A stretch of 42,743 bases of DNA from Escherichia phage vB_EcoM-606R2, in sequence record ON470579.1; one strand, given 5' to 3'. Below, piece after piece: positions 1 to 39,635 of the stretch; positions within the stretch are counted from its first letter, which is position 1; each line of letters starts with the position of its first letter. Below the pieces are notes generated by a model. It did not search any database. It saw only the letters and a program-made list of their open reading frames with translations, and was not told the origin of the DNA. The position numbers were made by a program, and so were the translations under genes.

Positions 1-549
<549 letters not shown>

Positions 550-561
550 CTATGCTTTACT

Positions 562-1197
562 CTATTCCAGTTGCTGGAGTTCACCGCGCGGGGTTACTCG
601 CCAACGATGCTGACAGAAATAAAGCAGCGGGTTGTCCTGATTACTGTCGCTATAGCCACTGTACAACCGCAGTGGCGTGCCGATTTTACGCTCCAGTTGC
701 GCGACCTTCTCATGCCCGAGGCAACGCATCGTCAATACCCAACCACCATAGCCACGCTGAATCTGACTGGCGATAAGATTAACCCGCGGCAGCCAGGGCG
801 TATCGAAATAAACCGCTTCAACCAGCGGCTGCGGAGAGCCGGTAATCAACCAGATATCAGCATCGGAACTTAACAGGTAGGTGGTTAATCGCTCCTGAAC
901 CAGCGGAAAGGCGGTAACATTGTCACGAAACCAGCGTACGAAATCGGCCTGCAACGCCTGCAAACGCGCTTCATTGTGACCAAAAGTGCATCCCCACAGA
1001 AGCAGACTCATCGGCCAGCGTGCCGCACGGCCTTTTATCAATAACGCAATGGCTATGATCGGCAACAACGGCAGGACAAGCAACGCATTCAGCGGTTGGC
1101 GCCGCAGTAAATAACGCAAAAAACTGCCGAACATATCCTGCTGATGCAATGTTCCATCTAAGTCAAAAAACACCACACGACGCTCGTGAGTTGCCAA
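562..1197 (-). CDS. pgpC: phosphatidylglycerophosphatase C, HAD-family membrane phosphatase
   Basis: 211-aa ORF with the HAD motif FFDLDGTL and hydrophobic segments. Its position between tadA and yfhH matches the E. coli K-12 gene order as recalled. Confidence 0.82.
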   Translation of the reverse strand: MATHERRVVFFDLDGTLHQQDMFGSFLRYLLRRQPLNALLVLPLLPIIAIALLIKGRAARWPMSLLLWGCTFGHNEARLQALQADFVRWFRDNVTAFPLVQERLTTYLLSSDADIWLITGSPQPLVEAVYFDTPWLPRVNLIASQIQRGYGGWVLTMRCLGHEKVAQLERKIGTPLRLYSGYSDSNQDNPLLYFCQHRWRVTPRGELQQLE

Positions 1198-1405
1198 ACC
1201 ATACTCCTCTGGACTGAAACATCCTGATTAATTTTCGCTACTACATAGCCTAACAGATAGATCATCACTTTTCCGGCAACAATCGACCGCATCATGGCTA
1301 ACTGGAATTTTTAATTCATGGAAATTAGCGGCAATGGAATATAAAATTCACTCGCGTTTGTCTCATATTGCCTGTTGTCGCCACTATTTCATCGCGAGGA
1401 AAGAT

Positions 1406-2254
1406 ATGAACGGCTTACTTCGTATCCGTCAGCGTTACCAGGGGCTTGCCCAGAGTGATAAAAAACTGGCGGATTATCTGCTGCTACAACCTGATACGGC
1501 GCGCCATTTAAGCTCTCAGCAACTGGCCAACGAAGCCGGAGTCAGTCAGTCCAGCGTCGTGAAGTTCGCGCAAAAACTCGGCTATAAAGGTTTTCCGGCG
1601 CTTAAGTTGGCGTTGAGTGAAGCGCTGGCAAGCCAGCCGGAATCGCCCTCCGTGCCCATTCATAACCAAATCCGCGGTGATGATCCGTTACGGCTGGTCG
1701 GCGAAAAACTGATTAAAGAAAATACTGCCGCTATGTACGCAACGCTAAACGTTAATAGTGAAGAGAAACTGCATGAATGCGTAACAATGTTGCGCTCTGC
1801 GCGGCGGATAATTCTGACCGGTATTGGCGCTTCGGGTCTGGTGGCGCAAAACTTTGCCTGGAAGCTGATGAAGATTGGCTTCAATGCTGCCGCAGTGCGC
1901 GATATGCATGCGCTACTCGCTACCGTACAGGCGTCGTCCCCTGACGATCTGTTATTAGCCATTTCTTACACCGGTGTACGACGCGAGTTAAACCTGGCGG
2001 CAGATGAGATGCTGCGAGTGGGCGGAAAAGTGCTGGCGATTACCGGCTTTACTCCGAATGCCCTGCAACAGCGTGCTTCTCATTGCCTGTATACCATTGC
2101 CGAAGAACAAGCGACAAACAGTGCTTCAATCTCTGCTTGTCACGCGCAGGGAATGTTAACGGATTTGCTGTTCATTGCGCTGATTCAGCAGGATCTGGAA
2201 CTGGCTCCAGAACGTATTCGTCACAGTGAAGCGCTGGTGAAAAAACTGGTCTGA
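1406..2254 (+). CDS. yfhH: RpiR/MurR-family transcriptional regulator (HTH plus SIS domain)
   Basis: Track ORF 1334..2254; the likely true start is the ATG at 1406, preceded by GAGGAAAG. The translation has an N-terminal HTH and a C-terminal SIS-like region, and sits in the K-12 position of yfhH. Confidence 0.8.
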   Translation: MNGLLRIRQRYQGLAQSDKKLADYLLLQPDTARHLSSQQLANEAGVSQSSVVKFAQKLGYKGFPALKLALSEALASQPESPSVPIHNQIRGDDPLRLVGEKLIKENTAAMYATLNVNSEEKLHECVTMLRSARRIILTGIGASGLVAQNFAWKLMKIGFNAAAVRDMHALLATVQASSPDDLLLAISYTGVRRELNLAADEMLRVGGKVLAITGFTPNALQQRASHCLYTIAEEQATNSASISACHAQGMLTDLLFIALIQQDLELAPERIRHSEALVKKLV

Positions 2255-2309
2255 GTAAAGAATGCGCGTATAATGCCCGCCCGGTTTGTGTTGTTTTGAG
2301 AGTTTCCTT

Positions 2310-2357
2310 ATGGCGCTGTTAATCACTAAAAAATGCATCAATTGTGATATGTGTGAA
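2310..2357 (+). pseudogene. yfhL: 5' fragment of ferredoxin-like gene yfhL, interrupted by prophage insertion
   Basis: ATG at 2310 encodes MALLITKKCINCDMCE, the recalled N-terminus of the 4Fe-4S ferredoxin YfhL. The frame then diverges into AT-rich sequence and stops after two more codons. Confidence 0.65.
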
Positions 2358-2395
2358 ATTAAATAAAAATACATTTATTTTCATGGTGATGCAGT

Positions 2396-2419
2396 AATGT
2401 GTTATTGAATGTGTTATTG
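2396..2419 (+). repeat. tandem 12-bp direct repeat AATGTGTTATTG x2 near the prophage/host junction
   Basis: Read directly from the sequence; lies about 40 bp inside the presumed phage end. Confidence 0.85.
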
Positions 2420-2564
2420 AATTTATGGTGCAAAAAAATTTTGCATACGTTCAGCAACACAAAGAGCTCCCCTTTCTATAAAGGTTCATTTGAGACTCCC
2501 CCTTGACTCCCTCTTCGAAATTGAAGACCATTAACTGTACATAATTACAGTCCTGGATAATATT

Positions 2565-2831
2565 ATGCGCAGAAAAGAATCAAACGTTAGCAGTTTGCCG
2601 GAACTCACCAATTTTGAGGTAAGCTATTCCCTAGTTACCAATGAAGTTTACTTGTCTGCATCCTTCACTGATAACATGGCCTGTATACCAAACTGGCCCT
2701 TACAAGAATTTCCGGATCAACTAATATGCATTTCTCGAGCAAAAGCTATTGCCCTAATCGAAGAGCTCCAGAAGACCATCGACTATATGGACGCAGGAAT
2801 CGATCGACAATCAGGTAGCCTGCTCCAGTAG
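2565..2831 (+). CDS. hypothetical protein, AT-rich terminal cargo
   Basis: 88-aa ORF in an AT-rich region with a weak ribosome-binding site; no recognisable motif. Confidence 0.35.
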   Translation: MRRKESNVSSLPELTNFEVSYSLVTNEVYLSASFTDNMACIPNWPLQEFPDQLICISRAKAIALIEELQKTIDYMDAGIDRQSGSLLQ

Positions 2832-2964
2832 CTGGCGAGTTTTATACTCGTTCCCTGCAACAATGGGCTTTTGGTAAGGCACTCACAAATAAGGAATTCG
2901 TTAAGGCTTTTGTTCTGGAGACTCTGAAAGATACAAGGAATCAGTTGATGGCTGGTTTGATCAT

Positions 2965-3005
2965 ACTAATTAATATATTGTCAAACTCACAATATATTAA
3001 TTAGT
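2965..3005. repeat. perfect 16-bp inverted repeat (ACTAATTAATATATTG / CAATATATTAATTAGT) with 9-bp spacer
   Basis: Read directly from the sequence; lies between the 88-aa and 281-aa cargo ORFs. Candidate operator or AT-rich terminator hairpin. Confidence 0.8.
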
Positions 3006-3132
3006 GGTAGAACATAAAACCGAGTTCTTGACTTTCAATAGCTATTATATGCGATCAACAACCTTAACCATCTCCTTATATTTTATGAGATACTCAAACA
3101 ATTTAAATTTATGAGCAAAGGAAAATAATAAA

Positions 3133-3978
3133 GTGAATAAAAATCCCTGGGATATTCCAGCATGGCACGCTCTGGGCCGAGAAGCATCTTTAGTTACACA
3201 GCTCATTGGTTCTGGGGCAACAGCCATAGGTAAAGCCAATTATGCAGACAAAATAGGTGAATATTACACAGCATTTTTTGGGCTTTCTGTAGGTTTTGAG
3301 AGACTTGCTAAACTAATACTTGTTGCACACTATGCCATTGAACACAAAGGGAAAATGCCTGATGAGAATATTGTAAGAAAATTTGGACATAAGCTCATTG
3401 AATTAACCAACGAGGTTGATAGTATTTCTAAAAAAATGCAACTATCTCTGAGATATTCACGTCCTACACATAAAATTACCTACAAAATACTTGAATGTTT
3501 AGATTCCTTTGCTGATGCCCGACGGGGACGTTACGCAAATTTCTCCTCATTAAGCAGCCCCAATTTAACCAATAATGAACCTATTAATAAATGGTGGGGA
3601 GAAGTAGCCGAGAGTATCCTTGAAAAACATTATTATTATACAGTTGAACAAAGACGTGTTGAAGAAAATGCTAGGTTTATCAATGCCACTCTTTCACCGT
3701 ATACAACGGTCATGTATATGAATGAAAGTACCAACATTATGCAAGACCTTATATCAGCCTCCATCCGTACTGGACAAAATACCATTGTTCAAAAGTGGGG
3801 AAGATTCTATTCTCTTAGCATCGCTCGTTGGCTTGCCACAGTATTAGCAGAACTGTCTGATATAGCTTCTCATAAATATGGAATAATTAGTTTTTATGGC
3901 CTTAGTGAACATTGTTGCAGTTATATAGTTGAAGATAGTTTTTTAAAAAACAGAAAAATATGGCCACTTCGCCAATAG
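3133..3978 (+). CDS. hypothetical protein, AT-rich accessory gene at the prophage terminus
   Basis: 281-aa ORF with a GTG start 11 nt after AAGGA. Its composition is strongly AT-rich compared with the phage core. It sits next to the truncated invertase. Confidence 0.6.
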   Translation: MNKNPWDIPAWHALGREASLVTQLIGSGATAIGKANYADKIGEYYTAFFGLSVGFERLAKLILVAHYAIEHKGKMPDENIVRKFGHKLIELTNEVDSISKKMQLSLRYSRPTHKITYKILECLDSFADARRGRYANFSSLSSPNLTNNEPINKWWGEVAESILEKHYYYTVEQRRVEENARFINATLSPYTTVMYMNESTNIMQDLISASIRTGQNTIVQKWGRFYSLSIARWLATVLAELSDIASHKYGIISFYGLSEHCCSYIVEDSFLKNRKIWPLRQ

Positions 3979-3982
3979 TTAA

Positions 3983-4333
3983 CTAGAAAATCTGCATAAG
4001 GGGGAGAAATCCCCCACCTGTAATAACATAACTACTAAAATTAACACCTTGTTCGCACAACTCCTCCACCAGCACGACAAGATGCCGCACACTGCGCCCC
4101 AGCCGATCCAGCTTCCAGACAACCAGAGTGTCACCTGCCGATAATGTCCTGAGCAGTTTTTTCAGTCCCGGCCTTTCGGACTTTGTACCGCTTATCTTGT
4201 CTTCAAAAAACAGCTCGCATCCTGCACAGTTCAGCGCATTACGTTGTAGATCTGTGTTCTGGTCATTTGTTGACACACGTACATAGCCAATAAGCATAGT
4301 GGATCCCTCTGACAAAAGCAGGAATGATGCCAT
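3983..4333 (-). pseudogene. Hin/Gin/Pin-family serine DNA invertase, 3'-truncated
   Basis: The N-terminus MLIGYVRVSTNDQNTDLQRNAL...DRLGRS carries the serine-recombinase catalytic motif. The ORF is only 116 aa and ends in unrelated residues; the HTH DNA-binding domain is missing. Confidence 0.75.
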
Positions 4334-4722
4334 TTGCTCGTTATTTCTGCATTTTCATAAACGTTGGTTTGGGAGAAGCGGCAAAACGGAATGTGGGCAC
4401 AGGAGATAATCAGATACCGGATATGGGAGCATTCGCTTCTGGTTCGGGATGGTTCAGGCTACCAGGTGGATATATTGTTCAGTTTGGCACTTTTTCAGGA
4501 AACACGACCCGCTTTATCAGTGGACACTTCCCTATACCATTCCCTAATCAGCCGATGATTTCAGTCAGTGTTATGTCTGATGCCGTTCAGTCAGACCCGT
4601 CGAATCCTGCCCCGCAGGTTTTGTCTGTAAATTTTGAACATATCAGTAATTCAGCGTGGCGTGTGGCAACCAGTGATATCTCACAGCAATACAGATTCAG
4701 TTATATTTCGATAGGACGGTAG
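4324..4722 (+). CDS. alternative tail-fibre C-terminal variable segment (silent orientation)
   Basis: The ORF shares the crossover-site residues GLGEAAK with the expressed tail-fibre gene and is followed by an assembly gene. It would be fused to the constant N-terminal part only after inversion. Confidence 0.5.
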   Translation: MMPFARYFCIFINVGLGEAAKRNVGTGDNQIPDMGAFASGSGWFRLPGGYIVQFGTFSGNTTRFISGHFPIPFPNQPMISVSVMSDAVQSDPSNPAPQVLSVNFEHISNSAWRVATSDISQQYRFSYISIGR

Positions 4723-4724
4723 AA

Positions 4725-5165
4725 ATGCAGAAATATATTTTCAGTGCCGATAAAAATGCGTTTTTCCCTGTGGAGCTTAAAATCGCTTATCAGGAATCCG
4801 GCGAATGGCCCGATGATGGAATCGAAATTGACGACACTGTTGCTGCCGAATTTATGAAGGAAGCACCAGAAGGAAAATACAGAGGTGTCATCGACGGAAT
4901 GCCTGCATGGATTGATATTCCACCGCCAACTCATGAGGAACAAATTGCCGCAGCCGAACTGAAAAAGCAGCAATTGATTAATCAGGTCAACGAATACATA
5001 AACAGTAAGCAATGGCCTGGTAAAGCGGCGATTGGTCGCCTGAAAGGTGAGGAACTGGTGCAATATAATTTGTGGCTGGATTATCTGGACGCACTGGAAC
5101 TGGTCGATACTTCCGGTGCGCCAGATATTGAATGGCCTACGCCTCCGGCAGTTCAGGCCAGATGA
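4725..5165 (+). CDS. tail fibre assembly protein (alternative copy)
   Basis: 146-aa ORF with the conserved Tfa-type C-terminus ending WPTPPA, immediately after the alternative fibre segment. Confidence 0.7.
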   Translation: MQKYIFSADKNAFFPVELKIAYQESGEWPDDGIEIDDTVAAEFMKEAPEGKYRGVIDGMPAWIDIPPPTHEEQIAAAELKKQQLINQVNEYINSKQWPGKAAIGRLKGEELVQYNLWLDYLDALELVDTSGAPDIEWPTPPAVQAR

Positions 5166-5733
5166 CATCCGGCGCGGTGCTGGTATCTGTTGCCGTCACC
5201 GCGTCAATGTAATCCAGCACAGCGTTAAGCCGGGTTGTTTCTGCCTGCGTCAGTTTCCGCCCGGCTTGTAATTTCAGCTGAATCAGACTAATGGAAGCCA
5301 TTGCTGCATCAATCAGTGACTGGCGCTGTGCTTCTGACGCGTCTACTGCGGCGCTATGCTGTGCCTCGGTATCCGTCACCCATTTCTCACCATCCCATTT
5401 ATCGTATGGCGTTAACGGTGAAAGCGTGACATAACCATCTTTGATGGCACCGATATAATCCACTGTAACAGCTGCGCCATTTTCGATTGAGTAAACAGTC
5501 TCATTGCGATGGTCCTCTTCATGGCTCCATCCCTTACCTGTAAATACAGCCACTTTTCCCGGAATGTTTTCGCCAGGGTTAATTCCAGTGGAACAGGCGG
5601 GCATACTTACGCCAGTATTAATATATTCATCAGACCAGCCCGTATACTCAGATGTTTCAGCATCATAATAAAAACAACGCATATCGCCCGGCACTGTAGC
5701 CAGTCCATTTTCATCAAAAATTGGGGTCATCAT
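5137..5733 (-). CDS. tail fibre assembly protein
   Basis: 198-aa ORF with a Tfa-like C-terminus ending IWPELPEA, downstream of the expressed tail-fibre gene. Confidence 0.7.
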
Positions 5734-6542
5734 TTAGCCCTCACCAGAAAGTTAAATGCAATATTTCGCGGTCTGACGGCAACAAAATTCACACCATCAC
5801 CCACAGAGTTACTGGTGAAATTAAATCGTGAAAATCCTGGCTGATTTCCGGCGATACCATCATGAAAATTAATTGTGTGGCCCGCACCATCGCCTATATT
5901 CCCGGCAAACTGAGAAAAGTTTGTAGCTGCCTGCCAGCTTAATAATTCGCGACCACCGTCTGCACCTCGCCCGTCATCCCAGATACGAATGAAATCACCG
6001 CGGGCTTCAGGTAATACCAGCGAAGGAAACACTTTCGCCAGCACAGGGTAATCAGAGGCAGAAAATTTCGCCCCGTTAAACTTCAAAAACACCATACCGG
6101 ACCAGCTGTCGATGACAGAATTTGGCATTGCAGCGGACGGCCAGAAGAACGGAACGCCAATAGCTGGGGCACCTTCTCCCAAACCAAGGTTTTCGAGAGC
6201 TGTTTTCACCGTGCCGTCCGATTTGATATCGCCAAACGGATTCTTGCGGCTCAGGTATTCAACAGCAAACCCCGATCCCAGCAATTCAACAAAACCGGGC
6301 AGATCACCATTATCAAGCACATCCCGTTGCGTTTTATCACTTACAAACTGGGCCAGAGCTGCAGCAATAAAGCTGGCCTGCCGAATAACCTTATTGACTT
6401 GCGCACTGGAGGCTTTCCCTGCTGTAAATCCAGATAAAAGCGCGGGCAACGCTTCCCATTCCTCCTGCGATATAACATTGGCATTTCGATCCGTTGCAAA
6501 CGCTTTAAAGTCATTTTTCGCCATCAGAGTAATACTCCCCAT
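5730..6542 (-). CDS. tail fibre protein (constant N-terminus plus variable C-terminus)
   Basis: 270-aa ORF at the end of the baseplate operon; it contains the crossover site and is followed by an assembly gene. Confidence 0.7.
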
Positions 6543-28383: not shown

Positions 28384-28646
28384 GGTGACGGCTAGGTGAC
28401 GCGTAATTACATATCCGTCACCTGCTGCAAAGCGCGCCATATAAGGCCTGAAGATGTTTTAGGTGACAGGTGACGGTTGATTTTAGTTCTCTATATATAA
28501 GCGATCGTATAATACCTAAAATACACACTATCGCGTATATAGTTTTAAATTCTGCCGTCACCTGTCACCTTTAGCACATTTCCCATTGTTTTATATATAC
28601 TTTTTAAGGTGACGCTTAAGCGTTTTGCCGTCACCTAGCCGTCACC
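28384..28646. repeat. iteron array (candidate replication origin): about 10 copies of GGTGAC(GG)/(CC)GTCACC in both orientations around AT-rich cores
   Basis: Read directly from the sequence. Direct-orientation copies are at 28384, 28395, 28462, 28470 and 28608; inverted copies are at 28425, 28555, 28565, 28628 and 28639. The array lies immediately beside the primase gene. Confidence 0.7.
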
Positions 28647-38873: not shown

Positions 38874-39635
38874 ATGCAGGAACTAACTGAAATGCCGATC
38901 AACTATCCATACCCGAGAGAATCTTTTCCTGACTTTTTGAGGGAGTGTGGGTTCACCAATTTTTCCCACGAACAGCGTGAGACTTATGACTGCTATCGTT
39001 TAACGAATGGCGTAATTGTTAACCTTTACACCACCCGGACCATTCAGTTTCAAGGGAACCCTCAAGAACGTCCCAATGTTGAAACTGCAATAATGTCCCA
39101 TTTAGGAACGCCCCCCACGGCAACACCACTAGCCGTAGAACAGCCATCTGAGCTTCCCAAAAAGATATTCATTGTTCACGGCCATGACCATACTGCAAAG
39201 GAACAACTTGAGCTAATCCTTCATAAACTTGGATTACCAGACCATTTCATTTTGCAGAATACGGGAGGGACTGGACTCACCATTATTGAAGAGCTTGAAC
39301 GTGAAATTGGGCAAGGACAAACTGCTACTCGTTTCGGGATTGTTCTTTTGACACCTGATGATATGGGATACTCAAAGCGCGCCGGTGAAGCAGAAATCCA
39401 ACCCCGCGCAAGACAGAACGTTGTACTCGAGATGGGTATGCTTCTTTCGTCCTTAGGGCGCAGCAATGTAGCAATCCTTCAGAAACAGCACCTAGAACAG
39501 CCTTCTGATGCTAACGGGATTTTGTATCTGAATTTCAACGACCATGTACGTGAAACAGTTCCTCGTCTAGTGCAACGGTTACAAAATTCTGGTTTCGAAT
39601 TTACACAAGCTCAAATAGCTAACGCTTCCTCGTAA
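38874..39635 (+). CDS. TIR-like domain protein (COG4271 / Cap12-type TIR-like fold) with an unknown N-terminal domain
   Basis: The C-terminal region has the pattern KIFIVHGHD ... FGIVLLTPDD ... RARQNVVLEMGMLL ... PSD, recalled as typical of the TIR-like nucleotide-binding family. Not confirmed by search. Confidence 0.55.
   Translation: MQELTEMPINYPYPRESFPDFLRECGFTNFSHEQRETYDCYRLTNGVIVNLYTTRTIQFQGNPQERPNVETAIMSHLGTPPTATPLAVEQPSELPKKIFIVHGHDHTAKEQLELILHKLGLPDHFILQNTGGTGLTIIEELEREIGQGQTATRFGIVLLTPDDMGYSKRAGEAEIQPRARQNVVLEMGMLLSSLGRSNVAILQKQHLEQPSDANGILYLNFNDHVRETVPRLVQRLQNSGFEFTQAQIANASS

Follow-up and report, generated by a model that had tools for sequence, protein, structure and literature searches.

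A tail-fibre inversion switch with a truncated invertase, probably flipped in trans, in an Escherichia coli prophage

The Prophage and Its Setting

Here we describe the tail-fibre region of sequence record ON470579.1 (Escherichia phage vB_EcoM-606R2), a stretch of 42,743 nucleotides that we refer to throughout as the window. The region holds a constant tail-fibre part, two convergent sets of fibre tip and chaperone, a pair of inverted crossover sites, a truncated invertase gene (delta-pin), and a low-GC cargo gene (ORF281). At its left end the window begins with E. coli chromosomal DNA (tadA, yfhB, yfhH), and prophage follows thereafter. The left prophage boundary is an 18-bp attachment core, AATTGTGATATGTGTGAA, at positions 2340-2357, inside the displaced 5' end of yfhL; a second copy of this 18-mer is present in NZ_AP022003.1, an identical genome with RefSeq annotation, where it adjoins the integrase at the opposite end of the prophage. 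The two copies place the integration of the phage in the 5' end of yfhL. On this boundary, everything rightwards of about position 2358 is prophage.

The annotation of NZ_AP022003.1 puts the tyrosine integrase just past the right end of the window, adjoining yfhL, and lists a full phage gene set: a replication module (DNA polymerase, DUF2800, DUF2815, VRR-NUC nuclease, and SNF2 helicase), genes for lysis, the terminase, the portal, and the head, and tail and baseplate genes of the myovirus type. The temperate, myovirus-type prophage that carries the switch, ~42 kb in size and seated in yfhL, appears to be complete; the tail-fibre switch sits at the end of its late operon. Another GenBank record, ON470588.1 ("Escherichia phage vB_EcoM-611R5, complete genome"), is in essence the reverse complement of the window. 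Since that record contains the three host genes and no integrase, it looks more like a prophage region found by prediction than like the genome of a virion; a literature search found no paper on vB_EcoM-611R5. About 3,000 blocks of a contig collection list the exact sequence of the wedge protein of this prophage, and none of the 26 contigs with the exact wedge protein that were read carries an intact-invertase version of the same prophage.

Tail-Fibre Cassettes and Crossover Sites

The tail fibre is encoded in a constant and a variable portion. The constant N-terminal part, about 112 amino acids long, lies outside the invertible segment at 6188-6524 (minus strand; PHROG 11303 and 1396, residues 1-120) and is common to both of the fusion proteins discussed below. 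In the currently expressed state it continues into the variable tip Sv, a tip of the tail-collar type at 5730-6187 (minus strand; PHROG 3100 and 523, tail fibre/tail collar), and the full tail-fibre gene of the window state, running from 6524 to 5730 on the minus strand, is annotated by PGAP as a coding sequence of 264 amino acids. The chaperone for Sv is a TfaE-like protein of 198 amino acids at 5137-5733 (minus strand; Pfam Caudo_TAP, E = 5e-26).

The second set stands on the plus strand. It consists of the silent alternative tip Sv' at 4366-4722, which has a gp53-like C-terminal domain (Pfam PF21882 and PHROG tail-fibre families), and of the chaperone for Sv', a TfaP-like protein of 146 amino acids at 4725-5165 (plus strand; Pfam Caudo_TAP, E = 9e-34). 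In flipped genomes Sv' is joined in frame to the constant part as a protein of 231 amino acids, and both in-frame fusions, of 264 and 231 amino acids, are annotated in real genomes. A constant N-terminus with alternative C-termini, each with its own chaperone and in convergent orientation, is the layout of the Din family (Hin/Gin/Cin/Pin). Family searches confirm both of the convergent fibre-tip and assembly-gene sets that the initial annotation had described between the crossover cores.

The two sets are flanked by inverted repeat arms at 4359-4378 and 6173-6192, which are 20 nt long and 95% complementary. Within the arms is a perfect 15-mer, TTGGTTTGGGAGAAG, of which the window has exactly two copies, one at 4364-4378 (plus) and one at 6173-6187 (minus); at two mismatches or fewer, 0.11 matches to this 15-mer are expected, and two or more were seen in 0 of 100 shuffles. 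Each core belongs to a hix/gix-like crossover site of 26 bp: on the left TTTTCATAAACG-TT-GGTTTGGGAGAA at 4352-4377, with the central dinucleotide at 4364-4365, and on the right TTCTCCCAAACC-AA-GGTTTTCGAGAG at 6174-6199, with the central dinucleotide at 6186-6187. Both have half-sites of the TTxTCxxAAACC type around an AA/TT core; a pair of imperfect 26-bp palindromes in inverted orientation, with the same central dinucleotide, is typical of the Din family. The core is in frame within the tail-fibre gene and codes for GLGE in both fibre segments—the inverted 15-bp cores that had been noted at 4364 and 6173 in the tail-fibre frame are borne out by the perfect 15-mers and the 26-bp sites. The left site is kept in all related loci compared (L001, L003, and L006-L009), and both sites are kept in every locus examined, although cassette alleles differ between lineages.

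The Truncated Invertase

The delta-pin gene occupies 3983-4297 on the minus strand. From 4297 to 4031 it corresponds to PinE codons 1-89, and from 4030 to 3983 it reads through 15 unrelated codons to a stop. Against an intact pinE of 181 amino acids from another E. coli prophage (L003), nucleotides 1-267 are 96% identical; homology to pinE ends near 4031, which we take as the breakpoint, and no remnant of the pinE 3' half was found anywhere in the window at the DNA or protein level. The Pfam Resolvase match of delta-pin spans profile positions 2-98 of 145, and there is no helix-turn-helix domain. As the match ends at position 98, delta-pin lacks the last part of the catalytic domain and all of the DNA-binding domain; the missing part of the catalytic domain probably includes the oligomerisation helix E, a loss that we read from homology to Hin and Gin. 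RefSeq (PGAP) likewise lists delta-pin as a pseudogene without a C-terminus. The locus has no adjacent intact serine invertase with helix E and a C-terminal helix-turn-helix, the delta-pin product has neither a complete catalytic domain nor a DNA-binding domain, and no other invertase was found within the window.

The initial annotation had described the adjacent invertase as cut to 116 amino acids, with its DNA-binding domain lost. The loss of the domain stands, with codons 1-89 of the 181-aa PinE kept; the length needs correction. An open reading frame of 116 amino acids is present (3983-4333) if an in-frame ATG further upstream, at 4333, is taken as the start; the start that matches by homology is at 4297, which gives a product of 104 amino acids (89 from Pin and 15 others).

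In place of the invertase 3' half lies ORF281, a cargo gene at 3133-3978 on the plus strand, in a stretch of about 36% GC, compared with 49-54% in the remaining prophage. Forty-three complete E. coli genomes, drawn from unrelated lineages that include an ST38-type clone and O26/O111 STEC strains, share an identical junction of ORF281 and delta-pin. Its presence in these genomes indicates that the truncation is an old, shared state of the phage lineage and not a sequencing error, and it disposes of the case in which an intact invertase frame would reappear once errors were excluded. We propose that the low-GC ORF281 cassette replaced everything beyond codon 89 and so destroyed the phage's own serine invertase; with that enzyme destroyed, the switch cannot flip itself.

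It might be argued that the 104-aa product can still act as a recombinase, by itself or together with a partner; the N-terminal motif with the catalytic serine (MLIGYVRVSTNDQ) is indeed retained, as is an open reading frame. Serine recombinases, however, cannot bind their sites, dimerise, or form tetramers without the DNA-binding domain and helix E; the product ends at Resolvase profile position 98 of 145, without the former and, by homology, without the latter. We find residual activity of delta-pin hardly credible, and the bias between orientations reported in the next section also speaks against it.

The invertases of the Hin/Gin/Pin family, in their wild-type form, require a Fis-bound enhancer in cis. 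Mu has its Fis sites within the coding sequence of gin, about 550 bp ahead of the mom start (PMC3378877), a position that corresponds in Mu coordinates to approximately nucleotides 100-130 of gin; the Mu record holds no enhancer annotation. The proximal Fis site of Salmonella is about 100 bp from hixL (PMC3798978). From the delta-pin start codon to the crossover core is 67 bp, and from the Mu gin start to the annotated G-segment boundary is also 67 bp; by homology, the published Fis-site positions fall in the retained 267 bp of delta-pin. A scan of 4031-4352 for the Fis motif gave a sole suitably spaced pair, with motif scores too weak to confirm an enhancer, at centres 4220 and 4269 (49 bp apart). 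By homology with the published positions, the retained 267 bp would still hold a putative cis-acting, Fis-dependent enhancer.

Orientation of the Segment in Other Genomes

Both orientations of the segment are found in sequenced genomes. Across the locus, 21 genomes have about 100% identity to the window; 18 carry the window junction and three—22AR0747, MSB1_6C, and 1296KP—carry the flipped junction, with the same truncation junction as the window. The 7.9-kb locus of 22AR0747 (L001) is the window with 4379-6172 reverse-complemented and zero other differences, and the exchange can be placed anywhere in the ambiguous interval 4364-6187, that is, within the 15-bp cores. The same picture is given by the exact fusion proteins in public assemblies, where the window state is encoded in 658 contigs and the flipped state in 56, a minority of ~8% (a 92:8 bias by contig counts). 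All 24 flipped contigs that were read have the ORF281 and yfhH neighbourhood, and the annotation of the single flipped contig shown in detail includes a Resolvase fragment of 104 amino acids.

As in the Din family, then, both orientations occur and the exchange lies at the core. An exact reverse complement with the same truncation, in copies that are otherwise identical, means that the inversion post-dates the truncation and took place at the recombination core. A comparison over 8-9 kb showed flipped and unflipped copies to be identical, which left no SNPs with which to test the independence of the flips. The locus had been described as an inversion switch that appeared locked, with host range probably fixed in one orientation. 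The first part holds—it is a switch of the Gin/Hin/Pin type whose own invertase is truncated—but three genomes with identical flanks are flipped, and the counts of 18:3 genomes and 658:56 contigs do not fit a single fixed orientation. The same bias of 92:8 differs from that of the homologous segment in e14, where the inverted P segment is reported in 33% of 562 E. coli genome sequences (PMC12529663), and it is this difference that counts against an active delta-pin product.

The switch could still have been truly frozen since the truncation if the flipped copies arose by homologous replacement from a related phage with an intact invertase and the opposite orientation. Cassettes do get exchanged: 82.0312 has a 100% identical ORF281-delta-pin flank together with different tip and chaperone alleles, the 5' part of delta-pin is itself mosaic (in PEC411 it has about 85% identity, compared with 99.4% for ORF281), and other prophages carry the same cassettes, at about 97% identity, beside an intact pinE. 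Replacement is nevertheless an unlikely source of the flipped copies, because the flipped segment is a base-for-base reverse complement between flanks that are 100% identical, and the closest donors with an intact pinE that were seen are about 3% divergent. The donor would have to be an identical flipped copy, whose origin itself requires inversion.

Extra Invertases and Action in Trans

Invertase-like sequences elsewhere in these genomes were counted with chimeric queries, in which ORF281 (unique to the locus) was joined to a test sequence and the number of places per record was read as presence or absence. This test yields chromosomal counts, with no coordinates, and it works at the nucleotide level, where more distant serine invertases would be missed. 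With the pinE 3' half as the test sequence, 17 of the 18 unflipped chromosomes gave no copy and 097H6 gave one; among the flipped genomes, one copy each was counted in 22AR0747 and MSB1_6C, and none in 1296KP. With the pinE 5' half, an extra place was counted in every strain, and one more in 22AR0747, MSB1_6C, 097H6, and ECSC054. A synteny-guided scan of NZ_AP022003.1 (strain WP3-W18-ESBL-08) found that its sole second pin-like place is a pinH-like pseudogene remnant of 147 bp near ypjA. With K-12 pinQ as the query, 1296KP and eight of the unflipped strains gave pinQ-like sequence, and the others gave none.

Taken together, extra pinE-like or pinQ-like chromosomal sequence is present in all three flipped genomes. 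Such pinQ-like or pinE-like sequence is also present in eight unflipped genomes, and on the chromosomes of nine further unflipped genomes no extra invertase-like sequence was detectable; ECSC054, with a 5'-half-like place only, is ambiguous. Flipped copies are thus found in 3 of the 11 genomes with extra sequence and in 0 of the 10 without it (counting ECSC054 among the 10), a difference that is not significant (one-sided Fisher p about 0.12) in a set of 21 genomes that are related, not phylogenetically independent, and include two records that look like the same strain. A search for a serine invertase on plasmids, which covered the initial 50 kb of a single IncF plasmid of 131 kb, found none. 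The initial annotation had allowed that the switch was probably fixed "unless another invertase acts in trans" and had advised a search for intact paralogs elsewhere in the genome. That search found extra sequences in the flipped genomes and none in nine unflipped ones, and the clause on trans action fits the data best, although the association falls short of significance.

The lack of a significant association could be turned into an argument that no invertase is involved and that the segment was inverted by rare exchange between the inverted repeats of 15-20 bp, either dependent on RecA or associated with replication. The exchange point lies within a 15-bp identical core, which any homology-based mechanism could use. 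A length of 15-20 bp is, however, below the usual minimum for efficient RecA recombination, and the number of flipped genomes without extra invertase-like sequence is zero. With the same repeats in e14, moreover, pinE and pinE pinQ mutants are reported to have a locked P segment (PMC12529663). We consider inversion without an invertase improbable.

Our preferred reading, to which we give a probability of roughly 70%, is that the locus is a non-autonomous switch of the e14-P/Mu-G type, dead in cis and flipped in trans by the serine invertase of a co-resident prophage. Inversion between the 26-bp sites would join the constant N-terminus either to Sv and its chaperone or to Sv' and its chaperone. 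With both crossover sites intact, the segment should still be a competent substrate; flipping would occur only when a PinE-like or PinQ/PinR-like invertase of a co-resident prophage acts in trans, and in cells without such an invertase the segment would stay in the last state in which it was left. The anatomy, the truncation, the precise inversion among otherwise identical copies, and the orientation frequencies are direct observations; the identity of this enzyme, the retention of the enhancer, and the effect of the switch on host range are inferred.

Comparison with Known Switches

The closest known relative is the P segment of e14, whose repeat is quoted as 5'-TTGGTTTGGGAGAAGG-3' (PMC12529663); the 15-bp crossover repeat and the peptide around the site are identical to those found here. 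The e14 genes stfP-tfaP/tfaE-stfE-pinE follow the same order, with a constant fibre, two convergent sets of tip and chaperone, an invertase, and cargo, and the segment is of similar size in both elements (about 1.8 kb). Amino acids 1-89 of delta-pin closely match e14 PinE, the 198-aa chaperone is 64% identical to TfaE, and the 146-aa chaperone is 56% identical to TfaP. The fibre tips are more distant—Sv is 42% identical to StfE, and the tips overall are only 42-48% identical or unrelated to those of e14. The cargo gene after the invertase is mcrA in e14 and ORF281 here. Unlike in e14, the invertase is truncated at codon 89, and unlike the e14 remnant, this 42-kb prophage seems to be complete and has another baseplate module (a DUF2612 wedge protein and a 399-aa baseplate J protein).

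The G segment of Mu, inverted by Gin, is likewise a serine-invertase switch, with S/U and S'/U' as its alternative fibre genes, as are the P1 C segment with Cin and the Salmonella system with Hin. The 5' invertase sequence of Mu gin is conserved here; however, the G segment is 3 kb long and has a GA core and different fibres, and Gin is intact and autonomous.

A precedent for action in trans comes from PinQ and PinR of the Qin and Rac prophages (Kirigo et al., NAR 2025, PMC12529663). These enzymes are 38% identical to PinE and invert the e14 P segment in trans, so that the same repeats are flipped by the invertase of another prophage. Two differences should be kept in mind: in e14 the cis-encoded PinE is also present, and the output studied there was a defence phenotype, a block to T2 adsorption (PMC12529663). 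Our case for action in trans rests on the comparison of genomes, in contrast to that work. Remnants of the pinH type are, like delta-pin, decayed fragments of the Pin family annotated as pseudogenes; the pinH-like remnant that we inspected is an isolated 147 bp between ypjCB and ypjA, without annotated tail-fibre genes beside it, unlike delta-pin.

Parts of this account are already known—the truncation is flagged as a RefSeq pseudogene, and inversion in trans of the homologous e14 segment has been published. What is new is a defective member of a well-known kind of invertible segment. More broadly, and only tentatively, we suggest that a widespread, apparently complete temperate phage lineage may have lost its own invertase permanently to a candidate defence cargo while both crossover sites and both fibre cassettes stayed intact, with its host-range switch set by co-resident, invertase-bearing prophages. 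If so, the receptor specificity of the released virions would depend on the prophage community of the host, past or present. The fibre tip also bears on surface or defence phenotypes of fibre chimeras, like the one reported for e14. For annotation, a missing invertase beside an invertible segment does not mean that the segment is frozen, and the annotation of phase-variable loci should consider recombinases elsewhere in the genome.

The ORF281 Cargo Gene

The product of ORF281 is possibly a HEPN-like defence or exclusion protein; in weighing this assignment we considered a HEPN fold with an Rx4-6H motif. The family is conserved, without annotation, and has 486 homologues, of which the best 120 are 56-74% identical, except for the query's own cluster at 99%. 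We flag ORF281 as a highly conserved, uncharacterised cargo gene beside restriction-modification systems. In Enterobacter, ORF281 homologues come immediately after a type I restriction-modification operon; those of P2-like Serratia prophages are found between gpA and the portal gene, adjoining a PvuII-type system.

Cassette exchange and the ORF281–delta-pin junction

The flank carrying ORF281 (the low-GC cargo gene) and delta-pin (the truncated invertase gene) is 100% identical between the window and strain 82.0312; however, within the invertible segment (window 4364–6187), the two differ in their alleles of the fibre tip and chaperone. We therefore conclude that these cassettes are swapped among prophages by recombination, independently of inversion. 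The silent chaperone of another compared strain, 97-3250, is apparently truncated.

At the junction itself, strain CAU16175 (NZ_CP047378.1) has about 1.3 kb of extra DNA between its ORF281 match and its match to delta-pin and the segment—in window terms, at about 4002–4014—which suggests an IS insertion at this junction. The 52-bp spacer from the ORF281 stop codon to the invertase breakpoint contains a hairpin, GGGGGA-GAAA-TCCCCC (window 4000–4015), that may be a terminator that came with the cargo cassette.

A pin-like remnant elsewhere in the chromosome

Sequence from the 5′ part of pin finds a second, weak match in a large majority of E. coli genomes. This match is probably explained by a 147-bp pin-like pseudogene remnant between ypjCB and ypjA, located at 1274673–1274819 of NZ_AP022003.1, the E. 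coli genome identical to the window (9673–9819 of L012, our locus from that genome).

Attachment site and prophage boundaries

The ferredoxin gene yfhL holds the 18-bp att core within the 5′ end of its coding sequence, at window 2340–2357 and at about 28420–28440 of the compared locus L005. On the integrase side the yfhL N-terminus is a phage-supplied replacement; the displaced original 5′ end is still present at window position about 2310–2365.

Reverse-complemented, the window is essentially GenBank ON470588.1, a 42,739-bp record entitled "Escherichia phage vB_EcoM-611R5, complete genome". Three host genes (tadA, yfhB, and yfhH) are part of this record, and the integrase of the prophage is missing from it; apparently it is a prophage prediction whose ends were wrongly placed.

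Other prophage genes

Within the replication module, a TIR-domain protein is encoded at window 38874–39635 (+ strand). It has a match to PDC-S35, a candidate system in PADLOC (E = 1e-108), and its gene is possibly another defence gene, the second, carried by the prophage. The full length of an 88-aa ORF at window 2565–2831 (+ strand) is covered by a match to phrog_17793 (E = 6e-46); this ORF has no PGAP annotation in NZ_AP022003.1.
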